Source: Halalkalibacillus halophilus DSM 18494
Lineage (GTDB): Bacteria; Bacillota; Bacilli; Bacillales; Alkalibacillaceae
Reading direction: 5' to 3'
NCBI RefSeq assembly: GCF_000423105.1
Contig: NZ_AUHI01000004.1
Coordinates: forward strand, 362,810 to 386,809
Length of the DNA: 24,000 nt
Shown: in pieces, positions 3,800-24,000 of the stretch
How the letters are laid out: every line of letters starts with the position of its first letter
Numbering within the stretch: position 1 is the first letter of the stretch
Notes under the pieces: generated by a model
Seen by the model: only the letters and a program-made list of their open reading frames with translations
The model's database searches: none
Told to the model about the DNA's origin: nothing
Program-made: the position numbers and the translations under genes

Positions 3800-3810
3800 A
3801 GGAGCTCATC

Positions 3811-5046: not shown

Positions 5047-5052
5047 TTTATC

Positions 5053-5088
5053 AACAGCATAGCTTTTTTGGTTATGCTGTTTTATTTT
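5053..5088 (+). terminator. Intrinsic terminator after ynbB-like gene
   Basis: A 9-bp perfect stem pairs AACAGCATA (5053-5061) with TATGCTGTT (5073-5081). TTATTTT follows. Confidence 0.65.
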
Positions 5089-5119
5089 GGGGTATTAAAT
5101 AGAATAGATAATAAATTCA

Positions 5120-5136
5120 TGTAAACTTTCTTAACA
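5120..5136 (+). promoter_or_regulatory. GlnR/TnrA operator 1 (perfect TGTNA-N7-TNACA)
   Basis: TGTAA-ACTTTCT-TAACA matches the published GlnR/TnrA consensus exactly. It lies just upstream of the glnRA promoter. Confidence 0.8.
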
Positions 5137-5140
5137 TCAG

Positions 5141-5169
5141 TTGACAACTTAAGTTACATGTAATAAACT
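5141..5169 (+). promoter_or_regulatory. glnRA promoter with overlapping GlnR/TnrA operator 2
   Basis: The -35 TTGACA (5141-5146) is separated by a 17-nt spacer from the -10 TAAACT (5164-5169). The second operator, TGACA-ACTTAAG-TTACA at 5142-5158, has one mismatch to the consensus and overlaps the -35, as in the B. subtilis glnRA control region. Confidence 0.65.
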
Positions 5170-5193
5170 GAATATTAAGTTGGAGGTGTTGAT

Positions 5194-5610
5194 GTGGATT
5201 TACAAGATAGAAAATCAATGCCCTTGTTTCCTATGAGTATCGTGAGTGAATTGACAGATTTATCAGGTCGTCAAATCAGATACTATGAAGAAAAAGGCTT
5301 GGTGACTCCGGTTCGATCAAAAGGTAATAGACGATTATTCTCGTTTTATGATGTTGATCGTTTGTTAGAGATAAAGCAATTAATTGATCAGGGAGTTAAC
5401 ATGGCTGGAATTCAACATGTTTTAAAAATGAAAGAAGAACAGGTTCGTGAACAGGAGCAAGAACCTACACCTCCTACTGAACCGGAAGTAATGAAGAAAG
5501 ATTTATCAGAGAAACAACTGCATCAATTACTTCGAAAAGAACTAATGGAATCAGGTTACCAAAATCATTCATCGATTGTTAAAGGGGAACTATCAAGGTT
5601 CTACCATTAA
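5194..5610 (+). CDS. glnR: MerR-family nitrogen regulator GlnR
   Basis: The MerR HTH (PLFPMSIVSELTDLSGRQIRYYEEKGLVTP) sits immediately upstream of glnA. The start is GTG, preceded by a GGAGGTG RBS. Confidence 0.9.
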   Translation: MDLQDRKSMPLFPMSIVSELTDLSGRQIRYYEEKGLVTPVRSKGNRRLFSFYDVDRLLEIKQLIDQGVNMAGIQHVLKMKEEQVREQEQEPTPPTEPEVMKKDLSEKQLHQLLRKELMESGYQNHSSIVKGELSRFYH

Positions 5611-5640
5611 TAATAAAACAATTTCTGGGAGGAAAATATT

Positions 5641-6975
5641 TTGCCAAAGATTACGAAAGAAGACATTTACAAACGTATTGAAGAAGAAAACGTGAGGTTC
5701 ATTCGATTACAGTTTACCGATCTTCTAGGAACAATCAAAAACGTTGAAATCCCATTAAGTCAGCTGGATAAAGCGTTAGACAACCAAATGATGTTCGATG
5801 GTTCATCCATTGAAGGGTTTGTGCGGATTGAGGAGTCAGATATGCAACTATCTCCTGACTTAGATTCATTTGTAGTATTCCCTTGGACATCTGAAAAAGG
5901 AAAAGTTGCTCGTTTTATCTGTGATATTTACAACCCAGATGGTACACCATTTGAAGGGTGCCCTCGTTATAATTTAAAACGTAATTTAAAACATATGGAA
6001 GACTTAGGTTTTACGGCATTTAACATTGGTACAGAACCAGAATTCTTCTTATTCAAGTTAGATGAAAAAGGCGAACCATCCATGGAATTAAATGATAAAG
6101 GTGGCTATTTTGACTTAGCACCAACGGACTTAGGGGAAAACTGCCGTCGTGACATCGTTTTAGAGCTTGAAGAAATGGGCTTTGAAATTGAAGCATCTCA
6201 CCACGAAGTAGCACCTGGTCAACACGAAATTGACTTTAAATATTCTGATGCAGTGAAACACTGTGATGATATTCAAACGTTCAAATTAGTTGTTAAGACT
6301 ATTGCGCGTAAACACGGTTTGCATGCAACATTCATGCCAAAACCATTATTCGGTGTGAACGGTTCAGGAATGCACGCAAACATGTCTCTATTTAAAGGGA
6401 AAGAAAATGCTTTCTTCGATAAAAAAGGAGAAGAGCAGTTAAGTGAAATCGCTCACCAATTCACAGCCGGGATCATTAAACACGCAGTTAACTTCACAGC
6501 GGTAACAAACCCTACAGTTAACTCTTATAAGCGTTTAGTTCCAGGGTATGAAGCGCCATGTTACGTAGCTTGGTCTGGTCAAAACCGTAGTCCATTAGTG
6601 CGTGTTCCATCTTCTCGTGGACTAAGTACTCGTATTGAAGTACGTAGTGTGGACCCTGCAGCAAATCCTTATATGGCAATGGCTGTTATGCTAGCTGCTG
6701 GACTTGACGGCGTGGAAAACAAATTAACAGCTCCAGAACCAGTAGATCGTAACATCTATGTAATGGATAAAGAAGAACGTGAAGCGAATGGTGTTCAAGA
6801 TTTACCAGCAACGCTTAACGATGCTCTTCAAAAACTAAAAGAAGATAGCACGATTTCTGCTGCTCTAGGTGAACACTTATTAGAACACTTCCTAGAAGCA
6901 AAAGAAATTGAATGGGATATGTTCCGTACGCAAGTTCACCCTTGGGAACGTGAACAGTATATGAATAGTTATTAA
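5641..6975 (+). CDS. glnA: Glutamine synthetase type I
   Basis: The 444-aa protein is colinear with Bacillus GlnA ([55 protein letters not shown]). A TTG start lies 8 nt after the GGGAGG RBS, and the N-terminus aligns with B. subtilis GlnA. Confidence 0.96.
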
Positions 6976-6983
6976 ACCTTTAG

Positions 6984-7018
6984 ACCTCTTGAGCTATAAC
7001 GGCTCAAGAGGTTTTTTT
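6984..7018 (+). terminator. Intrinsic terminator after glnA
   Basis: An 11-bp perfect stem pairs ACCTCTTGAGC with GCTCAAGAGGT. A run of seven T follows. Confidence 0.9.
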
Positions 7019-7071
7019 GAATAATATAAATGATTAGACCTGACACTTTCTTAGTAGTGTCAGGCTTTTGT

Positions 7072-7677
7072 TTAGTAGTGACTATTGGGAGAGTACGAAT
7101 AATGACTAGGGTGATGCTGATTGTTATATCCCATATAATGATCCTTCTTACAGTCGCTGTATGGTCCTATATAAGTGCTTGGTTTTATTGGTGCAGTGAC
7201 ATTTACCCACTCTTCTTCATTCATACAATACGTATGAGCCATGACATTTGCAGGGGTTAGTGCTAATATGTCAGATCCTAAAACGACTTCTGGATTTGCT
7301 GCATCGAATACGGCTAATAAATGAGTATGATCTTCTAATGCTACTATATAGTGCCACCATCCTTGTGGAATATTTACTATTTGCCCTGGTGTGATACAAA
7401 AATGCAAATACTCTTTGGTGAATGGATTTAATAGGGATACTTCTGCTTGCCCGGATATACAATAGACGATCTCTGAAGCGTTTTGGTGATAATGCGGCTC
7501 TACAACATTCCCTCTACTTAAAAAAATATCAAGCAGGGAGGAGTGCTGTAAGCTGTTTAACTGCGCTTGCCCTGCTACATTAATTAAATTTTGTCTATCC
7601 TTAACGAACAAATGACTGTTATTCATATTAAAGAAATATTGAACAGATGGAGAAGTGTAATCGATTTGATTTGTCAT
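7072..7677 (-). CDS. Single-domain cupin protein with His/Tyr/Ser-rich C-terminal tail
   Basis: The cupin core motifs are visible (EPHYHQNASEIVYCISGQAEV ... PQGWWHYIVALEDHTHLL). I prefer the start at 7677 (MTNQIDY...) because an AAGGAGG RBS precedes it. The track's extension to 7764 has no RBS. Confidence 0.65.
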   Translation of the reverse strand: MTNQIDYTSPSVQYFFNMNNSHLFVKDRQNLINVAGQAQLNSLQHSSLLDIFLSRGNVVEPHYHQNASEIVYCISGQAEVSLLNPFTKEYLHFCITPGQIVNIPQGWWHYIVALEDHTHLLAVFDAANPEVVLGSDILALTPANVMAHTYCMNEEEWVNVTAPIKPSTYIGPYSDCKKDHYMGYNNQHHPSHYSYSPNSHY

Positions 7678-7764
7678 TACTGTAACCTGCCTCCTTTTCG
7701 CTAATATTAAACTATGATTGGAGAAGAAGATGGGTGAATGCCTAAAAAAGGAAAAAAGAAACAC

Positions 7765-7794
7765 TTGTTCTGTTCAGGTGAAATATAGTATAAT
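7765..7794 (+). promoter_or_regulatory. Sigma-A type promoter of the SOS cassette
   Basis: The -35 is TTGTTC (7765-7770), the spacer is 18 nt, and the -10 is a perfect TATAAT (7789-7794). Confidence 0.6.
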
Positions 7795-7795
7795 A

Positions 7796-7809
7796 CGAAC
7801 AAACGTTCT
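7796..7809 (+). promoter_or_regulatory. LexA (DinR) box / Cheo box
   Basis: CGAACAAACGTTCT matches the Bacillus consensus CGAAC-N4-GTTCG at 13 of 14 positions. It starts 2 nt after the -10 hexamer, a position suited to repression. Confidence 0.8.
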
Positions 7810-7828
7810 TAATTGATGAGGTGACCAT

Positions 7829-8077
7829 ATGAGCAATTACTTACTGAGAAGATCATATGAAGAAAAAATGAAACTAGACATTGTCTATCTGGATCAACAG
7901 CAAGAGATGACACAGCGTGTGGTTAGGGTTGTCAGATTGGAAGAAGATTATTTTCTCGCTTTTTGTTTTACTCGTAAAAAGGTGCGCAAATTTCATAAAA
8001 ACAATTTACTTGCTGTCTATCCGTATCAACGTCAAAGGAAAGGGGAGAGGTTCTTCGATGCACCAGGATCGAGGTAG
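7829..8077 (+). CDS. Small hypothetical protein (82 aa) with a WYL-domain-like sequence pattern; first gene of the LexA-box cassette
   Basis: The ATG follows a GAGGTGA RBS. The pattern LDIVY..(9)..TQRVVRVVRL..EDYFLAFC..RKKVRKFHKNNLL resembles the WYL consensus (I.Y....R.V.P..L....WYL.A.C....R.FR.DRI). Its 3' end overlaps the next gene's start by 20 nt. Confidence 0.5.
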   Translation: MSNYLLRRSYEEKMKLDIVYLDQQQEMTQRVVRVVRLEEDYFLAFCFTRKKVRKFHKNNLLAVYPYQRQRKGERFFDAPGSR

Positions 8078-8378
8078 TATCAAATGGACGTCACTCATGC
8101 TTCCTGAGCATGTGGAGGAACTACAGGAAATTTGGAAAGAAGATTACTATGAGCCAAAGCAAATAACTGGTGATCTGAATGAGGTGCTCGAACAAATTAA
8201 TCAGGCTTACCAAATAGAACAGGATGTAAATTTGTGCTTTTATAATGGATTTCGTTATGAACATTTACATGGGAAGGTGATCTCTATTGATGCTACTAAT
8301 CAACACTTTCAATTTAAATATCATCAACGAAGCTATAAACAGATTTCTTTTACCGCGGTGAAACGTATTGATTTTTAA
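8058..8378 (+). CDS. YolD-like protein (UmuD-analogue family usually paired with Gram-positive Y-family polymerases)
   Basis: The N-terminus reads MHQDRGSIKWTSLMLPEH, matching the YolD-like signature (RG.IKW....LPEH). The ATG at 8058 follows a GGGGAGAGG RBS. The track's longer ORF from 7917 has no RBS and overlaps most of the upstream gene. The gene sits directly upstream of the polymerase. Confidence 0.7.
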   Translation: MHQDRGSIKWTSLMLPEHVEELQEIWKEDYYEPKQITGDLNEVLEQINQAYQIEQDVNLCFYNGFRYEHLHGKVISIDATNQHFQFKYHQRSYKQISFTAVKRIDF

Positions 8379-8389
8379 GGAGGGGTAGA

Positions 8390-9646
8390 ATGGATTATCA
8401 AGGCTATCCTAGACATGATGTGTTTTGTATTGATATGCGGTCATTTTATGCAAGTGTAGAATGCATGAAAAGAGGCGTTGATCCACAAACGTCATTGCTC
8501 GCTGTCGTGGGTGATCCGAACCGGAATGGCAGCATTGTGTTAGCCGCTTCTCCTGCACTAAAAAAACAACACGGCGTTAGTAATGTAAGTCGTTATTTTG
8601 AATTACCAAATGATCCTAATTTAATTATCGCGAAAGCTCATATGGGTGATTATGTGATGGTTTCTTTGGAAATCACTAAATTGATGCTTCGATTTGTCCC
8701 AAAAGAAGCCATTCACGTCTATTCTGTCGATGAAATCTGGATTACAGTGGATGGACTTCGTAAACTATATGGTACTCCTTATGAAATTGCCCAAAAGGTA
8801 CAGGAGAGTATTCGGGAATTGTTTGGTATAGAATCGGTGATTGGAATTGGTGAAAATAAATTTTTAGCAAAAGTGGTTATGGATCTACATGCGAAAAAAG
8901 CAGAGGATGGAATTAGCGAATGTCGGTATGAAGATGTGGAACGTTTACTTTGGCCAGTTGCCCTAGAAGAAGTCTGGGGTATTGGATCACGAATGATGCG
9001 CAATTTAAATCGAATGGGCATGAGCAACTTAGGCGACCTCGCTAATCATTCCTTACCCCACTTAAAAAAGCGCTTCGGTATTATGGGAGAACAATTGTAC
9101 TGGCATGCGTGGGGAATTGATTTAAGTCCAGTTACCGGAAATTTTACGAAAACGGAGCAAAAAGGTTATGGCCATGGAATTACACTTTTAAGGGATTACT
9201 CAAAAGAAGAGATTTATGCATGCTTACTCGATCTATGTGAGGAAGCGTGCCGAAGGGCGAGAAAGGACGAGAGGTTGGGACGAACGATTCACTTGGCAAT
9301 TGGCTATTCAAGTGAGTTTGCGAAGGGATTCAGTAGGTCTATTTCCGTTGATGTTCCAACGAATGACACGCTTGAAGTATATGAAGTTTGTCTGCAGCTA
9401 TTTCATCGTTTCTACAGTGAAGGGTATAGTATTCGAAAAGCTTCTATGTCACTCACGAATTTAAGTGAGGAGGCAGGGACACAGTTGAGCTTATGGAATG
9501 ATCGGTCTAAATATCGTGATTTGTACCGAGTCATGGATGAAGTGAAAGATCGATTCGGTTCTACAGCTTTACTGCGAGCGAGTAGTTATACGAGTGGTGG
9601 AATTGCGGTGGAAAGAGGGAAGAAGATTGGAGGCCATTATGCATAG
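8390..9646 (+). CDS. Y-family translesion DNA polymerase (UvrX/YqjW/PolY2-like)
   Basis: The N-terminal catalytic motif reads VFCIDMRSFYASVEC. Other matches are SVDEIWI and GIGENKFLAKV, plus the little-finger region. An AAGGAGGGG RBS precedes it. Confidence 0.9.
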   Translation: MDYQGYPRHDVFCIDMRSFYASVECMKRGVDPQTSLLAVVGDPNRNGSIVLAASPALKKQHGVSNVSRYFELPNDPNLIIAKAHMGDYVMVSLEITKLMLRFVPKEAIHVYSVDEIWITVDGLRKLYGTPYEIAQKVQESIRELFGIESVIGIGENKFLAKVVMDLHAKKAEDGISECRYEDVERLLWPVALEEVWGIGSRMMRNLNRMGMSNLGDLANHSLPHLKKRFGIMGEQLYWHAWGIDLSPVTGNFTKTEQKGYGHGITLLRDYSKEEIYACLLDLCEEACRRARKDERLGRTIHLAIGYSSEFAKGFSRSISVDVPTNDTLEVYEVCLQLFHRFYSEGYSIRKASMSLTNLSEEAGTQLSLWNDRSKYRDLYRVMDEVKDRFGSTALLRASSYTSGGIAVERGKKIGGHYA

Positions 9647-9655
9647 GAACAGAAA

Positions 9656-9687
9656 AAAGGTATTTTCCAAACAGGGAAAATACCTTT
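9656..9687. terminator. Bidirectional terminator between convergent polymerase gene and lexA
   Basis: A 13-bp perfect stem pairs AAAGGTATTTTCC with GGAAAATACCTTT. It is flanked by an A-run upstream and T-rich sequence downstream. Confidence 0.8.
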
Positions 9688-9698
9688 TCATATTTTAA

Positions 9699-10319
9699 TT
9701 AATGAATGTCGCGGTATAAACCGACAACTTTACCTAATACCGTAACGTGATCTAAAATAATCGCTTCCATCGAAGGATTTTCAGGTTCTAAACGGTAGTG
9801 GTCTTCATCTTTAAAGAAGCGTTTGACAGTAGCTTCATCTTCTTCTGTCATTGCAACAACGATATCGCCATTGGAAGCTGTAGATTGCCTGCGAACAATG
9901 ACAAGGTCTTGATCAAGGATTCCAGCGTCGATCATACTCTGACCTTGTACAGATAAGACAAATACATCTTCTTCGGAAGTAGAAAACGTTTGAGGAAGAG
10001 GAATATATTCTTCAATGTTTTCTATCGCTGTTATTGGTTCACCAGCAGTAACTTTACCTATTAAAGGTGCGTACATAGCATTACGTTCACGAACGGTTTG
10101 GCTATCTGCAAAGGTAATTTCAATCGCTCTTGGTTTGGTTGGATCGCGACGAATAAATCCTTTTTCTTCTAAGCGAGATAAGTGTCCGTGTACAGTGGAG
10201 CTAGAAGCAAGCCCAACAGCAACAGCAATTTCACGCACAGATGGTGGATATCCTTTTTCTTTAACCTCTTGTTCAATAAAATCATAAATTTCTTTTTGTC
10301 TCTTTGATAATTTCTTCAT
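9699..10319 (-). CDS. lexA: SOS repressor LexA
   Basis: [68 protein letters not shown] is near-identical in layout to B. subtilis LexA. The cleavage-site and S24 peptidase regions are present (GQSM, VKRF). The start at 10319 follows a GGGGTGA RBS. The track's extension to 10361 adds 14 non-homologous residues. Confidence 0.95.
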
Positions 10320-10398
10320 TTTCTCACCCCGAGATTTTTGTGAATGTCCTATACCTGACATGAACTACCTATAGTATAGCAAGTTTTATCCAAGAACA

Positions 10399-14591: not shown

Positions 14592-15059
14592 ATGAAGAAA
14601 AATACGAATGACTTAATTCTTAAAACGTTGACACAATTAATAGCTTTCTTATTATTAGGCTTTTCTATTTACTTATTTTTCGCTGGTCATAATGCACCAG
14701 GTGGCGGGTTTATAGGTGGTTTAATGACAGCATCTGCTATTATTCTAATGTATATTACGTATGGTATCGAAAAAATCCAACAAATTTTGCCGATTAATTA
14801 CATTACGATGTTCATAGCCGGATTAATGATTGCGACACTATCTGGTGTAGGGGCAATCATGTTTGGAGTGCCCTTTTTATCACAAACTTTTGGGTATTTT
14901 GACATCCCGTTTTTCGGTGAAACAGAATTGGCTACTGCACTCATTTTTGACTTAGGAGTGTATCTAGCTGTAGTTGGGGTAACGATGACAATTATCTTAA
15001 CAATCGCAACGGATGCAACAGAAGATAATGAAATGAATGAGGAAAAGGTTGAGGCGTAA
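14592..15059 (+). CDS. MnhB/MrpB-domain membrane protein (stand-alone)
   Basis: The signature GHNAPGGGFIGGLMTASA plus four predicted TM helices match the MnhB subunit domain of Mrp antiporters. No other mrp genes are adjacent. Its stop TAA (15057-15059) overlaps the ATG (15059-15061) of the next gene. Confidence 0.65.
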   Translation: MKKNTNDLILKTLTQLIAFLLLGFSIYLFFAGHNAPGGGFIGGLMTASAIILMYITYGIEKIQQILPINYITMFIAGLMIATLSGVGAIMFGVPFLSQTFGYFDIPFFGETELATALIFDLGVYLAVVGVTMTIILTIATDATEDNEMNEEKVEA

Positions 15060-15541: not shown

Positions 15542-15583
15542 AAAAAGCGGGTAAAAGTGTAAATCACTTCTACCCGCTTTGTG
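15541..15583. terminator. Bidirectional terminator shared by convergent ccdC and yneK-like genes
   Basis: A 16-bp stem pairs 15544-15559 with 15565-15580, with one A-C mismatch and a 5-nt loop. An A6 run lies on one side and TTT on the other. The 3' arm overlaps the last codons of the minus-strand gene. Confidence 0.75.
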
Positions 15584-16007
15584 GTTCTAATAGATGTTGA
15601 TATGGTGTAAAGTCAATGTTCTTCTCATTTAAACGTTTTATCAAAAATTTATGATCCCGCTTAGGTGTTGCAAGAATATATCCTTCAATGAGTAGTTCCA
15701 AGGTAATAGACTTTGCTTTTCTTTCTAATGCTAGTCGCCCAATTCTTGCTCCGATCTTTTGTTTGGCAACATCCCGAAAAATTTCTGGGACAGGCTCTAC
15801 CAATTCATTAAGTAACTGCTTTTTCTCGTCACTCCATAAATGAATAGTTTCTTCAATATAAAACTCTTCCCAGTCGATAATTGATTTTCCATCTTCTTTT
15901 GGTAGCTTTTTAAGAAACTTTCGAAACATAAAGTAGCCACCAATGGTAAGCAATCCTAACATAATAAATGACCAAATAACTAATAATATCGCAACGATTC
16001 CAGACAT
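15570..16007 (-). CDS. YneK-like protein (DUF2621), N-terminal TM helix
   Basis: The 145-aa protein is in the syntenic position after ccdC. The family assignment is by recollection of YneK length and layout only. Confidence 0.55.
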   Translation of the reverse strand: MSGIVAILLVIWSFIMLGLLTIGGYFMFRKFLKKLPKEDGKSIIDWEEFYIEETIHLWSDEKKQLLNELVEPVPEIFRDVAKQKIGARIGRLALERKAKSITLELLIEGYILATPKRDHKFLIKRLNEKNIDFTPYQHLLEPQSG

Positions 16008-16049: not shown

Positions 16050-16146
16050 TGGCGGGACTGTGTGGGAATCGAACCCACCAGAGACAACACGTGCCTCTCG
16101 AGCGGTTTTGAAGACCGTGACACGCACCAGCTTTGCAACCAGCCCC
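16050..16146 (-). tRNA. selC: tRNA-Sec (selenocysteine tRNA, anticodon UCA), 97 nt with encoded CCA
   Basis: The minus strand reads GGGGCTGG...GGTCTTCAAAACC...GTGGGTTCGATTCCCAC-A-CAGTCCC-G-CCA. The 7-nt anticodon loop CTTCAAA is identical to E. coli selC, with UCA in the anticodon position. The T arm is GTGGG/TTCGATT/CCCAC. A long variable arm pairs (A)GAGGCA with TGTCTC(T) around the loop CGTGT. The acceptor has 7 bp plus a G-A juxtaposition at the 8th position. The gene is adjacent to selB, selD and selA. I could not fold the D and anticodon stems cleanly by hand. Confidence 0.85.
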
Positions 16147-16164
16147 AAAATAATTTTCTAGTTT

Positions 16165-16193
16165 ATTATACAAGCTGAGAACGTCTGTAGCAA
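16165..16193 (-). promoter_or_regulatory. Sigma-A promoter for selC
   Basis: On the minus strand the -35 is TTGCTA (16193-16188), the spacer is 17 nt, and the -10 is a perfect TATAAT (16170-16165). This places the -10 about 18 nt upstream of the mature tRNA 5' end. Confidence 0.7.
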
Positions 16194-16348
16194 CAAAGTT
16201 AACCACAATAATGTTCTTTATAAAGAATTATATCTGAAATTCCTTGGACATTTCGTATGAAATTGGATAAAATGGTTTTGAACTGTTATATTCTGTTAGG
16301 TTTATCATAAGATGATGATATATACGTTTTTGAGAGGAGTAATATCGA

Positions 16349-17434
16349 ATGGATAAATCGCTAACATTTATTGAGCCAAGGAGCGCAACAGATGAGCAGT
16401 CTTTCACTAGAATTAATGATGCTGCTAGTAAATGGATTGACAACTATTCGATGAACGTTCATGTCGTTTTCGATGACGATTTTAATATACATAGTGTCAG
16501 TGCATCTGTTAAAAGTTTATTTGGGTATACCCAAGAAGAGGTACTGAGTGCTTCGTTACTTTATTTTATTCATCCTAAACAGCATGAAGAATTAAAAGCA
16601 TTTGTACAGGGACTAGAGGAAAACAGTCGTCAGCGCATCGAGCTTCTTGTTAAAAATGCTAATAGTGAGTATATTCATTCTCAAAGCTATGCAGGAAAAA
16701 TTGTAGACCCTGAAACAGGAAAACCTTATTATGTAGCTGTAGCTCAAGATATATCAGATCAAAAGCAAGCTGCAGAAATGCTAGTCAGATCTGAGAAACT
16801 ATCAACAGCAGGGCAATTGTCTGCCTGTGTTGCACATGAAATAAGAAATCCGATCACTTCTTTAAAGGGTTTCCTTCAATTAATGGATACCAATATGAAG
16901 GGGAAAGAGGCATACCTAAAAATTATGAAAGATGAGATAGAAAAAATTGAAGCAATCTCATCTGAATTATTATATATTGCCAAACCTTCTACGAATACAT
17001 TCCAAGAAGATGATTTAATTATAATGCTTAAAGAAGTATGTACATTAATGCGCTCACAAGCACGAATAAATGATATCAAAATAAAGCAAGATTTTAATAT
17101 GAATCAATTCACACTACATTGTGATCGCTCGCATTTGAAACAGGTTTTTATTAATCTAATTAAAAATGCAATTGAAGCTATGGAAGACCCAGGCACAATA
17201 GAAGTAAATGTCTATTACAGTGACTATTTAACAATTGATGTAATAGATCAAGGTTGCGGGGTTCCTGATGAATTGAAAGCAAAATTAGGGCAACCTTTTC
17301 TAACCACTAAATCAAAAGGGACTGGGCTTGGATTAATGATTTCTAAAGATATTTTAAAGAAACATGATGCCACGATTCAAATAATCGACCATGAGCCAAC
17401 AGGAAGTATCTTTCGTGTTCAATTCTTAAAATAA
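16349..17434 (+). CDS. PAS-domain sensor histidine kinase, cytoplasmic, orphan (sporulation Kin-like HisKA/HATPase_c)
   Basis: A PAS-like N-terminal half (SVSASVKSLFGYTQEEVL...YVAVAQDIS) is followed by an H-box (CVAHEIRNPITSLKGFLQLM) and N/G boxes (INLIKNAIEAM, DQGCGVP, GTGLGLMIS). No TM segment is apparent and no response regulator lies nearby. A GAGGAG RBS sits 9 nt upstream of the ATG. Confidence 0.85.
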   Translation: MDKSLTFIEPRSATDEQSFTRINDAASKWIDNYSMNVHVVFDDDFNIHSVSASVKSLFGYTQEEVLSASLLYFIHPKQHEELKAFVQGLEENSRQRIELLVKNANSEYIHSQSYAGKIVDPETGKPYYVAVAQDISDQKQAAEMLVRSEKLSTAGQLSACVAHEIRNPITSLKGFLQLMDTNMKGKEAYLKIMKDEIEKIEAISSELLYIAKPSTNTFQEDDLIIMLKEVCTLMRSQARINDIKIKQDFNMNQFTLHCDRSHLKQVFINLIKNAIEAMEDPGTIEVNVYYSDYLTIDVIDQGCGVPDELKAKLGQPFLTTKSKGTGLGLMISKDILKKHDATIQIIDHEPTGSIFRVQFLK

Positions 17435-17449
17435 TAGGCTGGTGTTAAA

Positions 17450-19327
17450 ATGTCTCAACGAAATTATACTATCGGTATGGCTGGCCATATAGATCATGGA
17501 AAAACGGAACTTACGAAGGCATTAACTGGGACAAACACAGACAGGTTGAAAGAAGAAAAAGAACGAAGAATATCTATAGAATTAGGGTATGCTCCGCTCC
17601 TCCAATCTGAGGAACAAACGATATCGATTATAGATGCTCCAGGACATGAAAAATTTATTCGTCAAATGATTGCAGGCGTCTATTCCGTTGATCTCGTTTT
17701 ATTAATTGTTGCTGCTGATGAAGGCGTGATGCCACAAACGAAAGAACATATGGAGATTTTACATTATCTCGGCATTGAGAATGTGTGGTTTGTGATCTCC
17801 AAGGTGGATACCGTAGAGGAAGAGATGCTTTCCATTGTAGAAGAAGATTTAAGAGAACATATGAAACAATCATATTATCATGATCAGGCGATTTTTCATG
17901 TGGACTCCGTTAGCTTCCAAGGAATAAAACAATTAAAAGATGCCATCACGCAACACCTAGAGAGTTCACCTGTAAAGGATCAGTTTGGCGAATTCAGACT
18001 TGCAGTTGATCAAGTTTTTTCTATCCATGGGACTGGTACTGTTGTGAGAGGCACTATAATGAGCGGGATTGTGCAAGAAGGCGAAGAGGTTCTACTTCTC
18101 CCTTCAAATAATAGAACTCAAGTTAAAACGATTAGACAGTTTTCAAACAATGTATCTCTTGCTAAGGCGGGAAGTAGGACTGCTCTATCGTTAAGAAACT
18201 TACAAGTGAATGAGATAAAAAGAGGGGAAGTAGTTACCTCTAATTTACAAGCACTTGCTACTAGACGAGTGGACTTGGAGTTAAGGGTTAGTCCGTATTT
18301 AGATAAATGGATTAAACAACGTTCACCTATTAAACTGCATGTTAACACTAGTGAAGCATATGGTAGAATTGTTTTTTTCGATAGGAATAGAGTAGAGGAG
18401 CCAGACGAACTTCTTTATGTTCAAGTTGAATTAGACGACCCAATATATGTCCATAAAGGGGATCGTTTTGTACTTCGAAGGGCAACTCCGGTTGAAACCA
18501 TTGGAGGCGGTCGTATTATAGTCCCACAAGCCTCGAAACATAAATTTGGGATGGATACAGTGGAATGGTTAAAAGAAAGGTCTGAAGCCTCCTTGGAGGA
18601 ACAAATACTATTGTTAATCGAAGAGGATCCGGGAATCGATTTTACCAAATTGAAAAGTCAATTCACCTCCTCTTTGTCAGAAGTAGAAGATAAGTTTCAT
18701 GAATTACAAAAAGAGAGAATCGTACAAATAGATTACAAATTATATACTGTTAATCAGGTGAAATATGCAGAAGATTCGTTAATTAGGACTTTAACAAAAT
18801 TCCATGAAAGTAACCCGATGAAAAAAGGATTAAATAAATCAGAAGTCATTCAATCATTACCTTATCAAACCAAACGTGAAATGACGTTACTTCACTACTT
18901 TATTGACCAAGAAGTTATTGAACAGTCGATGCATTATATTTACCTAAAAGGATTTTCACCTTATGTTCCAGACAACTTAAAGGAAATGGTAGATTCATAC
19001 TTGAACCAGTTGTATAAAGACAAATATGAGGTGAAGGAGTATAGCAATTACTTAACTGAGATGTCAGCTTCAGAGCAAGTAAATGTGATAAACTATTTAA
19101 TTGATCAGAGTCGAATTGAACCTCTAACCGACGAACTAATGATGGATTCTTCAAGGTTTAAAGAGAGTGTGGACCAACTAAAGGGAATTTCTGAAGAGTC
19201 ATTCTCTTTAAAAGAAGCGAAAGATGAATTGGGTCTATCAAGAAAGTATCTTATACCGTTACTAGAATTAATGGATCATAAAGGGATAACCATTCGACAG
19301 GAAAATGTACGTGTATGGAATTCGTAA
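17450..19327 (+). CDS. selB: Selenocysteine-specific translation elongation factor SelB
   Basis: The N-terminal EF-Tu-like G domain (GMAGHIDHGKTELTKALTG, DAPGHEKF, SKVD) is followed by a long C-terminal extension of about 250 aa, as expected for the winged-helix SECIS-binding domains. The protein is 625 aa. The gene starts 15 nt after the kinase stop codon. Confidence 0.9.
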   Translation: MSQRNYTIGMAGHIDHGKTELTKALTGTNTDRLKEEKERRISIELGYAPLLQSEEQTISIIDAPGHEKFIRQMIAGVYSVDLVLLIVAADEGVMPQTKEHMEILHYLGIENVWFVISKVDTVEEEMLSIVEEDLREHMKQSYYHDQAIFHVDSVSFQGIKQLKDAITQHLESSPVKDQFGEFRLAVDQVFSIHGTGTVVRGTIMSGIVQEGEEVLLLPSNNRTQVKTIRQFSNNVSLAKAGSRTALSLRNLQVNEIKRGEVVTSNLQALATRRVDLELRVSPYLDKWIKQRSPIKLHVNTSEAYGRIVFFDRNRVEEPDELLYVQVELDDPIYVHKGDRFVLRRATPVETIGGGRIIVPQASKHKFGMDTVEWLKERSEASLEEQILLLIEEDPGIDFTKLKSQFTSSLSEVEDKFHELQKERIVQIDYKLYTVNQVKYAEDSLIRTLTKFHESNPMKKGLNKSEVIQSLPYQTKREMTLLHYFIDQEVIEQSMHYIYLKGFSPYVPDNLKEMVDSYLNQLYKDKYEVKEYSNYLTEMSASEQVNVINYLIDQSRIEPLTDELMMDSSRFKESVDQLKGISEESFSLKEAKDELGLSRKYLIPLLELMDHKGITIRQENVRVWNS

Positions 19328-19370
19328 TTTATCTTTTAAAGTGAATGTATTCTGCGACGATCAAACAAAT

Positions 19371-19419
19371 AAAACTCCAATGTAATTCATTTTAAAATGG
19401 AATTACACTGGAGTTTTTT
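19371..19419. terminator. Bidirectional terminator between convergent selB and selD
   Basis: An 18-position stem pairs 19371-19388 with 19400-19417, with one A-C mismatch. It is flanked by AAAA on one side and TTTTTT on the other. Confidence 0.85.
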
Positions 19420-19458
19420 AATTAATGGCCACCTAATTCGAAAAGTATTGCCAGAGGT

Positions 19459-20517
19459 TTAGTTAACATAAATCGGATATGGTTGTTGTTCAGATACTTC
19501 TCCGATAACCTTAGCTCCGAGTGAGCCAGTAGCATTTAATTTTTCTACATAGGATTTGGCCTGTTCAGCAGGTAGAGAAACTAATAGCCCACCTGAAGTG
19601 ATTGCGTCAGCGAGGATTACCCGTTGAATTTCCGTAATCTCATTTGAGAACGAAATAGATGATTCTAACCATTTTAAGTTTTCTTTACTACCACCAGGTA
19701 TGGCTCCTTTTTCAGCTAGCTCTGAAGTTCCTTTGATTACTGGAACTTGTTCGTTAAAGATCGTAAACGTTTTATTACTACCACGAGCCATTTCTAAAGC
19801 ATGGCCTAATAAGCCAAATCCAGTAACATCTGTAACTGCATGGGCATTACACTCATGTAAAAAAGATGCAGCCTTTTTATTCAATTCTTTCATCCAGTAG
19901 ATTGCTTCATTAGATATATGTTCAGGAGCGAATCCTTTTTTTACAGCTGTAGTAATGATTCCGCCACCAATAGGTTTTGTTAATACAAGTAGATCTCCAA
20001 CTTGACTACTTGTGTTTGTTAAAACTTTATCAGGATGAGCAATACCGGTTACTGCCATGCCGAATTTTGGTTCTAGATCATCGATGGAGTGGCCACCAAT
20101 AATGGAGCCTCCAGCTTCATGGACTTTATCTTCTGCTCCTTGAAGGATAAAAGACAACATATCAGCACCATATTTTTTTACAGAGAAATTCGTAATATTC
20201 AGTGCAGTTTTCACTTCGCCTCCCATTGCGTACACATCGCTCATAGCATTCGCAGCGGCTATTTCACCAAAAGTATAAGGATCATCGACAATAGGTGTAA
20301 AATAATCAACTGTTTGAATGAGAGCAATGTCATCCGTGAGTTTAAACACACCAGCATCGTCTGAACTATTTTGGCTGAATAAAACGTCGTCATTTTTTGG
20401 ATGTACTTTTACTTGACTCAACACGTGAGCCAGTTCGCTTGGCGCGAGTTTACATCCTCAACCAGCTTTGGTTGAAAGAGAAGTTAATCGGATGATTTCA
20501 TCTTCACTTTTATTCAT
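19459..20517 (-). CDS. selD: Selenophosphate synthetase SelD, Sec-containing form (352 codons; codon 20 = in-frame UGA read as selenocysteine)
   Basis: The ORF track starts this gene at 20424 (TTG). Reading the same frame upstream gives ATG(20517) MNKSEDEIIRLTSLSTKAG-TGA-GCKLAPSELAHVLSQV..., which recreates the SelD N-terminal glycine-rich loop. The UGA falls where E. coli SelD has its catalytic Cys (G-C-G-C-K). A GGGGG RBS and a TATAAT -10 (20550-20545) lie upstream. The rest of the protein is a clear SelD/AIR-synthase fold (DDAGVF, DYFTPIVDDPY..GEIAAANAMSDVYAMGG). Confidence 0.88.
20458..20460 (-). other. Recoded UGA (Sec) codon of selD
   Basis: The plus strand TCA at 20458-20460 is a minus-strand TGA, in frame between codons G19 and G21. 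The downstream mRNA (CUCGCGCCAAGCGAACUGGCUCACGUG) contains partial dyads (GCCA/UGGC, CGCG/CGUG) that could form a SECIS-like structure. This was not verified by folding. Confidence 0.8.
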
Positions 20518-20659
20518 TTCCCATACCCCCAATCCACTGATTTCATTATACGTGATATAAGATAAATAGAAAACTAAGCCAATTGGACAATTAAAAATGA
20601 TTGAATTTTAAAGGGTATTCTTTTAAGCTAGAAGTAATATACAACTAGGAGGAATTGGA

Positions 20660-20899
20660 ATGAGCTATAAAGTATCTATCGAATTTTGCATGCAGTGAAA
20701 CTATGCGCCAAAAGCTGCGAGTTTCGCAGATGAATTATTTACACATTTTCGTCATGACATTTCAGAAATGAAACTGATCCCTGCATCGGGTGGAGCATTT
20801 GAAGTAAAAATAGACGGAAATAAAATTTATTCTAAGTTAGATACAGGCGTGTTTCCAAAGTCTGAAGATATAATCAATGATATTCACACCATGAAATAA
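20660..20899 (+). CDS. Rdx-family (SelW/SelT/SelH-like) thioredoxin-fold selenoprotein, 79 codons with in-frame UGA at codon 13 (C-M-Q-U motif); absent from the ORF track
   Basis: The ATG at 20660 follows an AGGAGG RBS (20647-20652). The translation is MSYKVSIEFCMQ-U-NYAPKAASFADELFTHFRHDISEMKLIPASGGAFEVKIDGNKIYSKLDTGVFPKSEDIINDIHTMK. This fits the Rdx pattern IE[YF]C-x-x-[CU]...[RK]A...L...F....L.P...G.FE[VI]..[DN]G..I[YW]SK...G.FP. Both halves are in one frame across TGA 20696-20698. A hairpin follows the UGA and a terminator-like stem follows the stop. Confidence 0.85.
20715..20729 (+). promoter_or_regulatory. Candidate bacterial SECIS hairpin of the Rdx-like gene
   Basis: A perfect 6-bp stem pairs CTGCGA with TCGCAG around the apical GTT. 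Read as a 5-bp stem, the loop is AGTTT. The stem starts 16 nt after the UGA, inside the coding sequence. G/U in the apical loop is typical of bacterial SECIS elements. Confidence 0.6.
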
Positions 20900-20906
20900 T
20901 TAACCC

Positions 20907-20941
20907 AAACCCACCGAATAAGTAAGAATTTCGGTGGGTTT
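20907..20941 (+). terminator. Terminator-like hairpin after the Rdx-like gene (no strong U tract)
   Basis: A 12-bp perfect stem pairs AAACCCACCGAA with TTCGGTGGGTTT, with an 11-nt loop. The following sequence is ATGTATAAAAT rather than a T-run. Confidence 0.55.
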
Positions 20942-21000
20942 ATGTATAAAATAGGGACAGGAAAACGGTTTTACTTCAATAATAGAACGGAGATACAATT

Positions 21001-22422
21001 ATGAACGATAAAATGAGACTTATCCCTTCCATACATCAGCTAATGCTAGATGATCGAATTCAATTCATTCAAAGTGAGTATGAGTTGACCAGTGTAGAAC
21101 TAAAACAAGTATTACAAGAATCTTTGAGTGAATTTAGAGAGTCTATTTTTGCAGAAAAAGTAAGTTTAAATAGCAAAGAAGAAGTAATGGATCATATCTA
21201 TGTTTTAACTAAGAGATATAGTGATCAGATTTCTACACCCAATCTTCAACAAGTAATTAATGCTACAGGAACAGTTCTTCATACAAATCTGGGGCGAGCT
21301 CGCCTTTCTAAATCTTCTCTTGATGCTTTACAACAAATTGGAGCAAATTACTCCTCTTTAGAGTTTGATATCAAAAGTGGTAGGAGGGGATCTAGGCATG
21401 ACCTAGTGGAATCGCAATTAATACATTTAACAGAAGCAGAGGCTGCTATGACAGTTAATAATAATGCGGCAGCGGTCTATCTGATACTGTCTGCTTTTGC
21501 CAAAAATCAAGAAGTAATTGTGTCTAGAGGTGAGTTAGTAGAAATCGGAGGAAGTTTTCGGGTATCTACAATAATGGAAGAAAGCGGCGCACAATTAGTG
21601 GAAGTAGGAACAACGAATAAAACGCACTTATATGATTATACGGAAGCAATAACGTCTGAGAGTAGCATGCTTATGCGTGTCCACACAAGTAACTTTTATA
21701 TGAAAGGTTTCACTTCCAGTGTAGAAAGAGAAGAACTTATTAAAACCTCAAAGCAAGAAGAATTACTTTATTATGAGGATCTTGGAAGTGGCATGATTTA
21801 TGACTTGAAACAGCATCAAATAGGCTCAGAACCTAGTGTGGCCGATGTTATTCGCACAGGCGCAGACCTTGTCTCATTTAGTGGAGATAAGCTTTTAGGA
21901 GGGCCACAAGCTGGGATTATTGTTGGAAAAAAAGAATGGATAAATAAATTAAAGAAGCATCCACTCGCGCGGGTTCTTCGCATGGATAAATTCTCGTATG
22001 CTGCCTTAGAACAGACACTTAAAGATTATACGAAGGGTTCAGATTTTTTAAGAAGTCAAAACCCAACTATTAGGGATATATTAAAGCCTGCTAGTGAACT
22101 GAGGCAAGAGGTAGAAGCAAAATTAGCCGAATTAAATGACTTAAAAATGTTGAAAGTTTACGGAAAAGATATTATATCGAAAGTGGGAGGGGGGACGCTT
22201 CCAGAAGTTGAACTGGATTCATACGGAATTGCAATAAAGTCTGAAAGTATAAATAGTATGGAAATCCAAGAACTTTTAAGAAGTGATCAGCAACCAATTG
22301 TTTGTAGAATCGAACACGAAGCTTGTGTTTTGGATTTTCGAACACTTGATTGGGAAGAACAAAAAAGATGTATGAATGCTATAGTGGAGTTGGATAAACA
22401 ATTACGTGAAGAACTGTTATAA
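21001..22422 (+). CDS. selA: L-seryl-tRNA(Sec) selenium transferase SelA
   Basis: The 473-aa protein carries SelA signatures (INATGTVLHTNLGRA, VSRGELVEIGGSFR) and the PLP-lysine region FSGDKLLGGPQAGIIVGKK. Confidence 0.92.
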   Translation: MNDKMRLIPSIHQLMLDDRIQFIQSEYELTSVELKQVLQESLSEFRESIFAEKVSLNSKEEVMDHIYVLTKRYSDQISTPNLQQVINATGTVLHTNLGRARLSKSSLDALQQIGANYSSLEFDIKSGRRGSRHDLVESQLIHLTEAEAAMTVNNNAAAVYLILSAFAKNQEVIVSRGELVEIGGSFRVSTIMEESGAQLVEVGTTNKTHLYDYTEAITSESSMLMRVHTSNFYMKGFTSSVEREELIKTSKQEELLYYEDLGSGMIYDLKQHQIGSEPSVADVIRTGADLVSFSGDKLLGGPQAGIIVGKKEWINKLKKHPLARVLRMDKFSYAALEQTLKDYTKGSDFLRSQNPTIRDILKPASELRQEVEAKLAELNDLKMLKVYGKDIISKVGGGTLPEVELDSYGIAIKSESINSMEIQELLRSDQQPIVCRIEHEACVLDFRTLDWEEQKRCMNAIVELDKQLREELL

Positions 22423-22573: not shown

Positions 22574-24000
22574 ATGGGATCAAGCAACGCTTTTAATTCA
22601 AAAAAGCAATTTGAACTGAATGGTAAAACGTACAATTATTATCATTTAAAAGCATTAGAAGAACAAGGGCAAGTAAATATTAAGAAGCTTCCGTTCTCTA
22701 TTCGTGTTTTACTAGAATCTGTATTGCGTCAACATGACGGCCATGTAATTAAAAATGAACACATTGAAAAATTAGCAAAATGGGCAGATGGAGAAAAGGT
22801 CGATGTACCTTTTAAGCCATCACGTGTCATTTTACAGGACTTCACTGGTGTACCAGCTGTAGTGGACCTAGCTTCTTTACGTAAAGCGATGGTTGATATG
22901 GGTGGAAGCCCTGATAAAATTAACCCAGAAGTACCAGTTGACTTAGTAATTGACCACTCGGTGCAAGTAGATAAGTATGGTACTCCTGATTCATTGAAAT
23001 TTAATATGGATATGGAATTTAATCGTAATGGAGAACGTTATGAGTTCTTACATTGGGCACAAAAAGCTTTTGACAACTACCGTGCTGTACCACCAGCAAC
23101 TGGTATCGTGCACCAAGTTAACTTAGAGTACATTGCAAATGTCGTTCATTCTCAAGAGCAAGAGGATGGTACGTATGATGCATTCCCAGATACTTTAGTA
23201 GGTACTGACTCACACACTACTATGATTAACGGTTTAGGTGTACTTGGTTGGGGTGTAGGAGGAATTGAAGCGGAAGCAGGTATGCTTGGTCAGCCTTCTT
23301 ATTTCCCTACTCCAGAAGTTATTGGTGTTAAGTTAACTGGTAGTATGCCAGAAGCTACAACTGCTACTGACTTAGCCTTGAAAGTAACTCAAGTACTACG
23401 TCAGAAGAATGTTGTCGGTAAGTTCGTTGAATTCTTTGGTCCAGGTCTAACGTCAATGCCATTAGCTGATCGTGCAACTATTTCAAACATGGCTCCTGAA
23501 TATGGTGCAACGTGTGGTTTCTTCCCAGTCGATGATGAAACACTTAATTACATGCGTTTAACAGGCCGTTCAGAAGATCAAATTGAGTTAGTTAAAGAGT
23601 ATTTGCAGAGAAATGATTTATTCTATACTACAGATCAAGAAGATCCTGAATTCACGGAATTAGTAGAAATTAACTTATCAGAATTAGAGCCGAATCTATC
23701 TGGACCAAAACGTCCACAAGATTTAATTCCTTTATCTGCAATGAAAAAATCATTTAATGAAGCATTGACTGCTCCTGCAGGTAACCAAGGATTCGGATTA
23801 ACTTCAAAAGAAATTGACCGTGAAGCTGAAGTAAACTTTAACGATGGTTCGAAGACGACAATGAAGACTGGTTCTTTAGCAATTGCGGCAATCACTTCTT
23901 GTACAAATACTTCTAACCCGCACGTTATGCTTGGTGCTGGACTACTTGCTAAAAAGGCAGTAGAAAAAGGATTAGATGTACCACCATATGTAAAAACTTC
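22574..24000 (+). CDS. citB: Aconitate hydratase A (3' partial, runs off the window; not in the ORF track because no stop is reached)
   Basis: The ATG at 22574 follows an AAGGGGG RBS. The translation [30 protein letters not shown]...[18 protein letters not shown]...[18 protein letters not shown]...[26 protein letters not shown]...[10 protein letters not shown] is colinear with B. subtilis CitB. Confidence 0.95.

Follow-up and report, generated by a model that had tools for sequence, protein, structure and literature searches.

Genes for selenocysteine (Sec) decoding lie together between two conserved backbone genes of Halalkalibacillus halophilus DSM 18494, which raises the questions of how the locus came to be there and which proteins its machinery serves. 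The window, the whole stretch of DNA analysed here, comprises 24,000 nucleotides of contig NZ_AUHI01000004.1, and the Sec genes and their tRNA span 6.4 kb of it, between yneK and citB. An initial annotation regarded them as an accessory cassette inserted into this interval. We consider it likely that they instead form a functional chromosomal Sec-decoding locus that was inherited vertically and lost in several lineages, with a conserved Rdx protein as the probable main client and a histidine kinase gene that belongs to the backbone.

Positions 16050-22422 hold selC, a PAS histidine kinase gene, selB, selD, rdx and selA, each where the initial annotation had placed it, and the family models for SelA, SelB, SelD and Rdx all score above their curated cut-offs, confirming the gene identities. 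selB (17450..19327, + strand) encodes the Sec-specific elongation factor with C-terminal winged-helix, SECIS-binding domains (TIGR00475, 366 bits against a cut-off of 242; PF09107, PF09106 and PF25461). selA (21001..22422, + strand) encodes L-seryl-tRNA(Sec) selenium transferase (TIGR00474, 531 bits, cut-off 268; PF03841, 459 bits). The selenophosphate synthetase gene selD (19459..20517, - strand; translation and TIGR00476, 375 bits, cut-off 125) encodes a 352-aa protein that is itself a selenoprotein: its reading frame contains a TGA (20458-20460; residue 20 in the motif KAG-U-GCK), which is kept in 13 of 13 orthologues found. The gene starts at 20517; the 20424 of the mechanical open reading frame results from the ORF list ending at that UGA. 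Between the convergent selB and selD, repeat search and folding identified an inverted repeat with 23-nt arms (19371..19417; -18.8 kcal/mol, z-score -5.5), a candidate bidirectional terminator. On the upstream side, profile searches found ccdA, an MnhB-like gene, ccdC and yneK (DUF2621; 15570..16007, - strand; PF11084, 226 bits). The downstream flank is the aconitase gene citB/acnA, which starts at about 22574 and whose translated 5' part (22574..24000, + strand; 87-89% identical to Alkalibacillus citB) runs past the end of the window. These are the B. subtilis-type flanks that had been described, and the cotM-sspP-sspO content given for this interval in B. subtilis 168 is consistent with a B. 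pumilus-group relative, in which the interval holds SspO, SspP and a 141-aa gene.

The tRNA-Sec gene selC (16050..16146, - strand) has the anticodon UCA and an encoded CCA end. It was called by ARAGORN and matched by Rfam RF01852 (57.7 bits, gathering score 47), as the check proposed for it required, and it shows a mean column identity of 89% with 17 orthologues that likewise adjoin yneK. In the window, yneK lies 42 nt downstream of selC on the same strand; the terminator scan found no terminator between the two and a strong one 3' of yneK (15544-15580). A consensus scan placed a sigma-70-like promoter, TTGCTA-17-TATAAT (16165..16193, - strand; 10/12 matches), with its end 18 nt ahead of the tRNA; because promoter-like hits in the region are no more numerous overall than expected from shuffling, it is no more than a candidate, for selC and possibly for yneK.

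The second selenoprotein gene, rdx (20660..20899, + strand), encodes a 79-aa member of the SelW/SelT/SelH family by its translation and by profile matches (PF10262, 78.9 bits, cut-off 22.6; TIGR02174, 66.9 bits, cut-off 34.2). Its in-frame TGA (20696-20698) corresponds to residue 13 and completes an N-terminal CxxU redox motif, C10-M-Q-U13. With SelD, this bears out the two selenoproteins reported for the region, both with an in-frame UGA. The rdx UGA is kept across 15 orthologous loci, and nearly all close Rdx homologues likewise have UGA at the same position. Against the Campylobacter equivalog NF041051 (SelTWH_Campy) the protein scores 82.8 bits, below the cut-off of 88, and by this comparison it represents a subfamily related to, but distinct from, that equivalog. 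The public annotation appears to contain only the 43-aa portion beyond the UGA, so rdx is probably under-annotated in the source genome. A terminator-like hairpin with a 12-bp stem followed by UUU was found by folding 3' of the gene (20907..20941, + strand; -19.1 kcal/mol, z-score -4.6); the terminator pattern scan missed it on account of its 11-nt loop.

Decoding of UGA as Sec is expected to depend on a hairpin downstream of the codon. Candidates were obtained by folding alignments with RNAalifold rather than from a dedicated bSECIS model. For selD, a 7-bp stem with a CGUGU loop (20414..20432, - strand) places the loop 33-37 nt past the U of the UGA; across the alignment, 100% of cells are paired, against at most 54% in slid controls, two pairs show compensatory changes, and the covariation exceeds that of 500/500 shuffles. 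For rdx, a 5-6-bp stem, CUGCG(A)/(U)CGCAG, with a G-U-containing loop (20715..20729, + strand) has its loop beginning 22 nt past the UGA and 97.8% of cells paired (slid controls, at most 64%). In Fictibacillus, this stem carries a UA-to-CG compensatory change via synonymous Ala codons. Two other structures were considered and set aside: an fdhF-like SECIS of rdx starting at the UGA, suggested by a single-sequence fold, is broken in several orthologues on alignment, and a further selD hairpin (alignment columns 13-27) takes different registers in two sequence groups and was not counted as conserved.

The gene between selC and selB (16349..17434, + strand) encodes a cytoplasmic histidine kinase with PAS, HisKA and HATPase_c domains by Pfam. 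The closest solved structure is ThkA (3a0r), followed by the Geobacillus sporulation kinase B (KinB, 3d36), and the H-box presumably resembles that of KinA; among models of the Spo0F-phosphorylating sporulation kinases, that of KinD gives 157 bits (cut-off 775). No response regulator adjoins the kinase in the locus. Its stop codon lies 15 nt ahead of the selB start, and the two genes probably share a transcript. Kinase orthologues adjoin yneK in many genomes without sel genes at the locus, and Fictibacillus, Alkalicoccus and one Salirhabdus have sel loci with no kinase. Judged by this distribution, it is a backbone gene of the lineage, neither dedicated to the Sec system nor cargo of a Sec cassette, and its earlier listing as a cassette member does not hold.

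The arrangement was compared across 80 loci, chosen for having the most similar YneK. The same block, in the same slot and order, is present in Piscibacillus and in each of the five sampled Alkalibacillus species, and the block also occurs at this locus in Melghiribacillus, Salirhabdus, Salinibacillus, Pontibacillus marinus, Thalassobacillus pellis, Alkalicoccus and Fictibacillus. The order, with selC and yneK on the left, then the kinase where present, selB, selD, rdx, selA and citB, is found in at least 11 genera. Linkage of rdx to the block is seen in 15 of 16 complete loci, and rdx is found only in loci carrying sel genes; Halobacillus sp. MO56 has kept the Sec machinery and is missing rdx at the locus. 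Other relatives have the kinase alone in the slot, or nothing, as in most Halobacillus, and Allobacillus, within the closest clade, has the kinase and no sel block. Presence differs even within genera: P. marinus has the block and P. chungwhensis does not, and T. pellis and Thalassobacillus sp. CUG differ in the same way. The patchiness of Sec decoding supposed for Bacillaceae is thus seen among the sampled loci, and in published tables for Bacillales (Peng et al. 2016, ISME J, PMC5029168, Tables S1/S2). In sel-less intervals, tblastn (E up to 1) gave only chance-level matches to sel genes, with no indication of pseudogene remnants, and a covariance model built from 18 tRNA-Sec genes detected no tRNA-Sec relic among another 46 loci, of which 44 lack sel genes (default filters on all 46, filters off on four).

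If the locus had been inherited with its surroundings, its phylogeny is expected to follow that of the flanking genes. The neighbour-joining tree of SelA and SelB has 12 of its 14 bipartitions in common with the flank-gene tree; all Sel bipartitions supported at 89% bootstrap or more recur in the flank tree, and two weakly supported ones differ. The group of the window, Alkalibacillus and Piscibacillus has 100% support in the Sel tree, and the window's exact place in its clade is weak there, with 41% bootstrap for grouping with Alkalibacillus vs 100% in the flank tree. Both trees recover the sister species pairs. Sel and flank distances are correlated (Mantel r = 0.76; 0/5000 permutations as high), and in no pair does the Sel distance fall below the flank distance. 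GC content shows no step, at 0.34-0.40 within the block vs 0.33-0.43 outside. These observations argue for an ancestor, shared at least by Alkalibacillus, Piscibacillus, the other sampled halophilic Bacillaceae, Alkalicoccus and Fictibacillus, that would have passed the locus down, several lineages having lost it. About five losses would explain the distribution better than six or more identical gains. Since no scars were found in sel-less loci, loss is inferred from parsimony and tree congruence.

Two forms of horizontal acquisition were weighed against this account. A mobile Sec cassette recently inserted between yneK and citB in the window's own lineage would fit the patchy occurrence of the trait, the other genes in this interval in the B. 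pumilus/subtilis type and its emptiness in most Halobacillus, the transfers of whole Sec traits documented elsewhere (PMC5029168) and the existence of plasmid-borne selA genes. All of those plasmid genes are, however, below 48% identity, and the block already occupies the same site in the six closest sampled carriers and seven more genera, the finding that the initial annotation had itself named as refuting an island. Congruent trees and flat GC point the same way, as does the window itself, where the ORF, profile and repeat searches found no integrase or transposase and only short, chance-level flanking repeats, in agreement with what was first noted. Moreover, selC and selB-selA flank a kinase that occurs without sel genes in other genomes. 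Recent insertion is therefore highly improbable. An example of true insertion at this slot, of which the window has no trace, is seen in Fictibacillus arsenicus, where about 6.5 kb and a tyrosine recombinase have entered at the 3' part of selC, 64 nt of which are duplicated. The block could also have moved repeatedly among related Bacillaceae by homologous recombination via yneK and citB, horizontally and yet keeping its place. Its uneven presence within Pontibacillus and Thalassobacillus, the lack of deletion scars and the two discordant bipartitions are compatible with such transfer, and the saturation of Sel protein distances at about 0.5-0.58 makes such transfer harder to detect inside the clade. 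Nevertheless, no well-supported conflict between the Sel and flank trees was seen, Sel proteins are in no pair more alike than the flanks, and sister pairs agree, so that we regard this route as unlikely, if less so than recent insertion.

A vertically inherited locus might still be a decaying remnant, its machinery unused and its UGA codons acting as stops that truncate SelD and Rdx. The selenoproteome of relatives is indeed tiny (PMC5029168 Table S2 counts 1-3 known selenoproteins in Alkalibacillus, Halalkalibacillus, Pontibacillus marinus and Salinibacillus); SelA and SelB are fast-evolving (48-53% and 43-46% identity between window and Alkalibacillus; SelD, 57-63%), and the annotated rdx is a fragment. 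Against decay, the four protein genes all have their full length and score far above the family cut-offs, the UGA and the frame on either side are kept in every orthologue, the SECIS hairpins show compensatory substitutions, and Rdx is 75-79% identical to Alkalibacillus Rdx from end to end, the residues ahead of the UGA included. We therefore give decay very little credence, and the Sec machinery is apparently working. A tRNA-Sec (UCA), SelA, SelB with winged helices, SelD and in-frame UGA codons with candidate hairpins, by which a Sec-decoding trait is recognized, are all present. By the known functions of the families, SelD would make selenophosphate, SelA would turn Ser-tRNA(Sec) into Sec-tRNA(Sec), and SelB would bring the latter to UGA codons with a downstream SECIS hairpin, of which there are two, in selD and rdx. 

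What the machinery is for had been left as a question, and the locus answers it in part: Rdx is linked to the block, is lost from the locus with the machinery and is much more conserved than it. In its degree of conservation, Rdx comes close to a flanking backbone protein (window YneK is 81-84% identical to that of Alkalibacillus), while SelA and SelB evolve fast, suggesting that it is probably the main client and the main reason why the trait is kept. The Halobacillus sp. MO56 locus, with machinery and no rdx, indicates that Rdx is not the sole possible client. The scope here is the window, and other selenoproteins, such as FdhA, may be encoded elsewhere in the source genome. A more speculative proposal, which we hold only tentatively, is that the whole apparatus of four genes and a tRNA is kept for a closed loop of two in-locus selenoproteins, SelD and Rdx, and that coupling of selB to the kinase could link decoding to a developmental or redox signal. 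If so, this aerobic halophile would offer a natural minimal system in which the function of a SelW-like protein is the sole reason for Sec use.

Patchy Sec use in Bacillaceae would accordingly stem from an old locus of fixed position that has been lost repeatedly, which corrects the attractive reading of island gain. With a SelW-like Rdx as conserved client, aerobic halophiles would be convenient for studying bacterial SelW-like function, and for asking why costly recoding persists for so few proteins. Rdx resembles the SelW-like family (PF10262, TIGR02174; solved CxxC homologues such as Atu0228, 2fa8) in its full-length match, N-terminal CxxU and small size, and we know of no bacterial member with a known biochemical function. 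The locus as a whole resembles the bacterial Sec insertion system of E. coli and Moorella, with all four components at equivalog level, a UCA anticodon, SelB winged helices and a G/U-loop hairpin within 16-37 nt past each UGA. In E. coli, the sel genes are dispersed; here they lie close together, no formate dehydrogenase is linked, SelD carries Sec, and a kinase gene separates selC from selB. Sec use in this clade is already catalogued: SelD, SelA and SelB are listed for Alkalibacillus haloalkaliphilus C5, H. halophilus, P. marinus and Salinibacillus aidingensis, with neither the SeU nor the Se-cofactor trait in A. haloalkaliphilus C5 and P. marinus (PMC5029168). The window locus is a further example of the same kind of system. 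That survey gives presence and counts, and not the yneK-citB location, the rdx linkage, the kinase insertion or the pattern of descent and loss. The selC-associated integrative islands of Enterobacteria are matched by the F. arsenicus locus and not by the window, where selC is directly followed by yneK. Transferred Sec operons (Photobacterium profundum/Treponema denticola; Pseudomonadales/Betaproteobacteria; Zhang 2006, Peng 2016) likewise hold compact machinery beside the gene of its client selenoprotein, and the trait comes or goes as a whole, but their client is FdhA and their phylogeny conflicts with the species tree, whereas here the client would be Rdx and the tree follows that of the flanks.

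Every gene that the initial annotation had placed in the yneK-citB interval was recovered by ARAGORN, Rfam and protein family profiles. The interval is bordered on the left by yneK (15570-16007, minus strand) and on the right by the aconitase gene citB (plus strand, from about 22574). Beside yneK, ARAGORN calls a tRNA-Sec gene, selC (16050-16146, minus strand; Rfam RF01852, 57.7 bits vs 47), which is followed by genes for a PAS-HisKA-HATPase kinase (16349-17434, plus strand), selB (17450-19327, plus strand), selD (19459-20517, minus strand), rdx (20660-20899, plus strand), encoding a 79-aa CxxU protein of the SelW/SelT/SelH family, and selA (21001-22422, plus strand). SelA (531 bits), SelB (366 bits) and SelD (375 bits) far exceed their equivalog cut-offs, and Rdx passes both PF10262 and TIGR02174.

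The backbone of the window reads mutL-miaA-hfq-hflX-ynbB-glnR-glnA ... lexA-tkt-sirA-yneF-ccdA-(MnhB-like)-ccdC-yneK. The MnhB-domain membrane protein gene (14592-15059, plus strand; NF009223, 171 bits) lies between ccdA and ccdC and abuts the ccdC start; it is common to the halophilic genera and Fictibacillus and missing from B. cereus-group and B. pumilus-group loci. In the glnA-lexA interval (7917-9646, plus strand, and 9699-10361, minus strand), YolD-like and Y-family DNA polymerase genes adjoin the divergently oriented lexA, and this group is an SOS translesion-synthesis module.

Both proposed selenoproteins carry an in-frame TGA on translation, at residue 20 of SelD (KAG-U-GCK) and residue 13 of Rdx (C-M-Q-U). 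The region after the UGA was searched for hairpins in the window and in every related locus with the gene. For selD, a 7-bp candidate SECIS hairpin (20414-20432, minus strand) is paired in 100% of cells and shows both-sided changes at two positions (GC/UA/AU); its covariation score is higher than in 500 of 500 shuffles, and when the structure is slid by 1-3 columns as a control, no more than 54% of cells are paired. The rdx candidate (20715-20729) has 5-6 bp and a G-U-containing loop and is 97.8% paired, and in Fictibacillus a UA-to-CG change is achieved by two synonymous Ala codon substitutions. In the bSECIS model, the loops of bacterial SECIS elements are positioned 16-37 nt after the UGA; both loops fall within this range, that of selD at its upper edge. 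The UGA is kept in all orthologues found (13/13 selD, 15/15 rdx), and most metagenomic Rdx homologues have W called at the Sec position, indicating a TGA there too. At the sequence level, these conserved UGAs and hairpins argue for a working Sec system. A 43-aa NCBI protein in the protein database matches the post-UGA portion of Rdx exactly (20768-20899, window ORF P0027); the source genome thus seems to be publicly annotated without the complete selenoprotein.

The distribution of the block was assessed in 80 loci from species-representative genomes, fetched with YneK as query, of which the closest are from five Alkalibacillus (YneK identity 81-84%) and Piscibacillus. In 19 of the 80 loci, tRNA-Sec lies directly 5' of yneK and in the same orientation. 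The order selC-(kinase)-selB-selD-rdx-selA-citB is shared by Alkalibacillus (four loci complete, a fifth on a truncated contig), Piscibacillus, Melghiribacillus, Pontibacillus marinus, Thalassobacillus pellis, Alkalicoccus, Fictibacillus and, without rdx at this locus, Halobacillus sp. MO56. Salirhabdus and Salinibacillus keep the order without selD, which is presumably elsewhere in these taxa. Loci containing both flanks were scored for the state of the interval, which has three main forms. The full state spans 5.4-9.7 kb (6.3-8.3 kb in most), with Alkalicoccus, without the kinase, and Salinibacillus, with extra genes, at the extremes. A kinase-only state of 1.45-1.8 kb is seen in Virgibacillus, Lentibacillus, Oceanobacillus, Gracilibacillus, Sediminibacillus, Allobacillus, Thalassobacillus sp. 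CUG and P. chungwhensis, the last reaching 3.1 kb with two extra small ORFs. Nine Halobacillus and one MAG have an empty interval of about 290 bp.

Several loci contain additional genes. The two extra ORFs of Salinibacillus, between rdx and selB, are sigma-factor/anti-sigma-like by eye only. A conserved gene adjoining citB or selA in several genera (L018, L024, L025, L071, L065, L037 and the Fictibacillus loci) encodes a protein of ~86 aa that matches nothing in Pfam; the window lacks this gene. In three Fictibacillus loci (L068, L074, L075; about 4150-7580), genes for a GT4 glycosyltransferase and a PhnC/PhnE/PhnD-type ABC transporter separate selB and selD. The glycosyltransferase matches SenB selenosugar synthase weakly (57 bits) and a GPMC-type model at 225 bits, both below cut-off, and the binding protein scores 186 bits against a cut-off of 250 for TIGR04553, "putative selenate ABC transporter"; these genes may form a sel-linked selenium uptake or selenosugar module. 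In Robertmurraya siralis (L077), tRNA-Sec (9752-9848) adjoins yneK, and selA, selB and selD were not found within 10 kb; the association of selC with yneK may predate the remaining genes of the block. Upstream ORFs there encode 408 aa (acetate kinase-like by eye only) and 412 aa (a PocR-like histidine kinase, below cut-off).

The block had been read as an accessory island inserted between yneK and citB. Comparison of this interval across relatives speaks against that reading, as the same block recurs at the same site and in the same order in Alkalibacillus, Piscibacillus and further genera, gene trees are congruent and GC is flat across the block. As first noted, no integrase, transposase or att-like flanking repeat is found in the window, and plasmid selA genes are all <48% identical. 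On the flank-gene tree, about five losses, none marked by a pseudogene or tRNA relic, account for the interval states, compared with at least six identical gains in the alternative. Twelve of 14 bipartitions are common to the SelA+SelB and flank trees, among them a clade of the window, Alkalibacillus and Piscibacillus with 100% support; the two discordant splits have bootstraps of 63% and 36.5%. Within the 80-locus sample, and with Sel distances that saturate, Sel and flank distances are correlated (Mantel r = 0.76; 0/5000 permutations as high). Identity between the window and Alkalibacillus is low for SelB (43-46%) and SelA (48-53%) because these proteins evolve fast: comparisons within Alkalibacillus give 50% identity for SelB and 87% for Tkt. 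Recombination-mediated exchange of the block among relatives would fit the lack of any pseudogene or tRNA relic in sampled loci without sel genes, and both the saturation and the sample size leave it some room. However, all Sel bipartitions with at least 89% bootstrap are present in the flank tree and in no pair are SelA and SelB closer than the flanks, making such exchange improbable.

Mobile elements are associated with sel genes elsewhere. In Fictibacillus arsenicus (L070, NZ_MQMF01000003.1), ~6.5 kb (3308-9974) is inserted between selC and yneK, with a tyrosine recombinase gene (3591-4559) and, at about 9911-9974, a second 64-nt copy of the 3' part of selC. The insertion is a true integrative element with tRNA-Sec as attachment site, like the enterobacterial selC islands. 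In several Terrisporobacter species, small 21-kb plasmids carry annotated selA (plasmid hits H4-H10); part of the Sec machinery is thus plasmid-borne there.

The sensor kinase had been counted with the Sec cassette. Its orthologues (35-49% identity) occupy the same position and orientation beside yneK in genomes without sel genes at the locus, and Fictibacillus, Alkalicoccus and Salirhabdus sp. P4669 have sel loci that lack the kinase. The kinase gene thus belongs to the backbone of the halophilic lineage; it is located inside the sel locus but is not Sec cargo. Among proteins of solved structure, its closest relatives are ThkA and Geobacillus sporulation kinase B, and the family profile search assigned it to no equivalog model. 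In the window, 15 nt separate the kinase stop codon from the start of selB, and in two Alkalibacillus loci the genes share a 1-nt overlap; this spacing suggests co-transcription. Other candidate signals are a promoter-like site (TTGCTA-17-TATAAT) ending 18 nt before selC, an inverted repeat (23-nt arms) where selB and selD converge, and a 12-bp hairpin after rdx. The terminator scan gave a strong candidate after yneK and none at the selC-yneK junction.

Within the sample, 15 of 16 complete sel loci contain rdx, and none of the loci lacking sel genes was found to carry it. Rdx identity between the window and Alkalibacillus (75-79%) is close to that of YneK and well above those of SelD (57-63%), SelA and SelB. 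In published tables, Alkalibacillus haloalkaliphilus C5 and Pontibacillus marinus have Sec-trait genes but neither SeU nor Se-cofactor genes (PMC5029168 Table S1). Known selenoproteins number 1 in A. haloalkaliphilus C5, 2 in Halalkalibacillus halophilus, and 3 in both P. marinus and Salinibacillus aidingensis (PMC5029168 Table S2). The C5 block (L003) is interrupted by a contig end, which may explain its count. Zhang et al. 2006 proposed that SelD can contribute to maintaining the Sec trait where FdhA is absent, and reported that SelW-like proteins seldom have Cys homologues (PMC1794560). On the best-supported reading, SelD(U) and Rdx(U) are the conserved clients of the machinery, and possibly nearly the only ones.

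New here are the fixed yneK-citB location of the block, its probable vertical inheritance with clean losses on several occasions, the kinase embedded in the locus, and a SelW-like client that is strongly conserved and linked to the block. The presence of the system in this Bacillales group has already been tabulated (Peng 2016, PMC5029168), and the window carries the standard bacterial Sec system.
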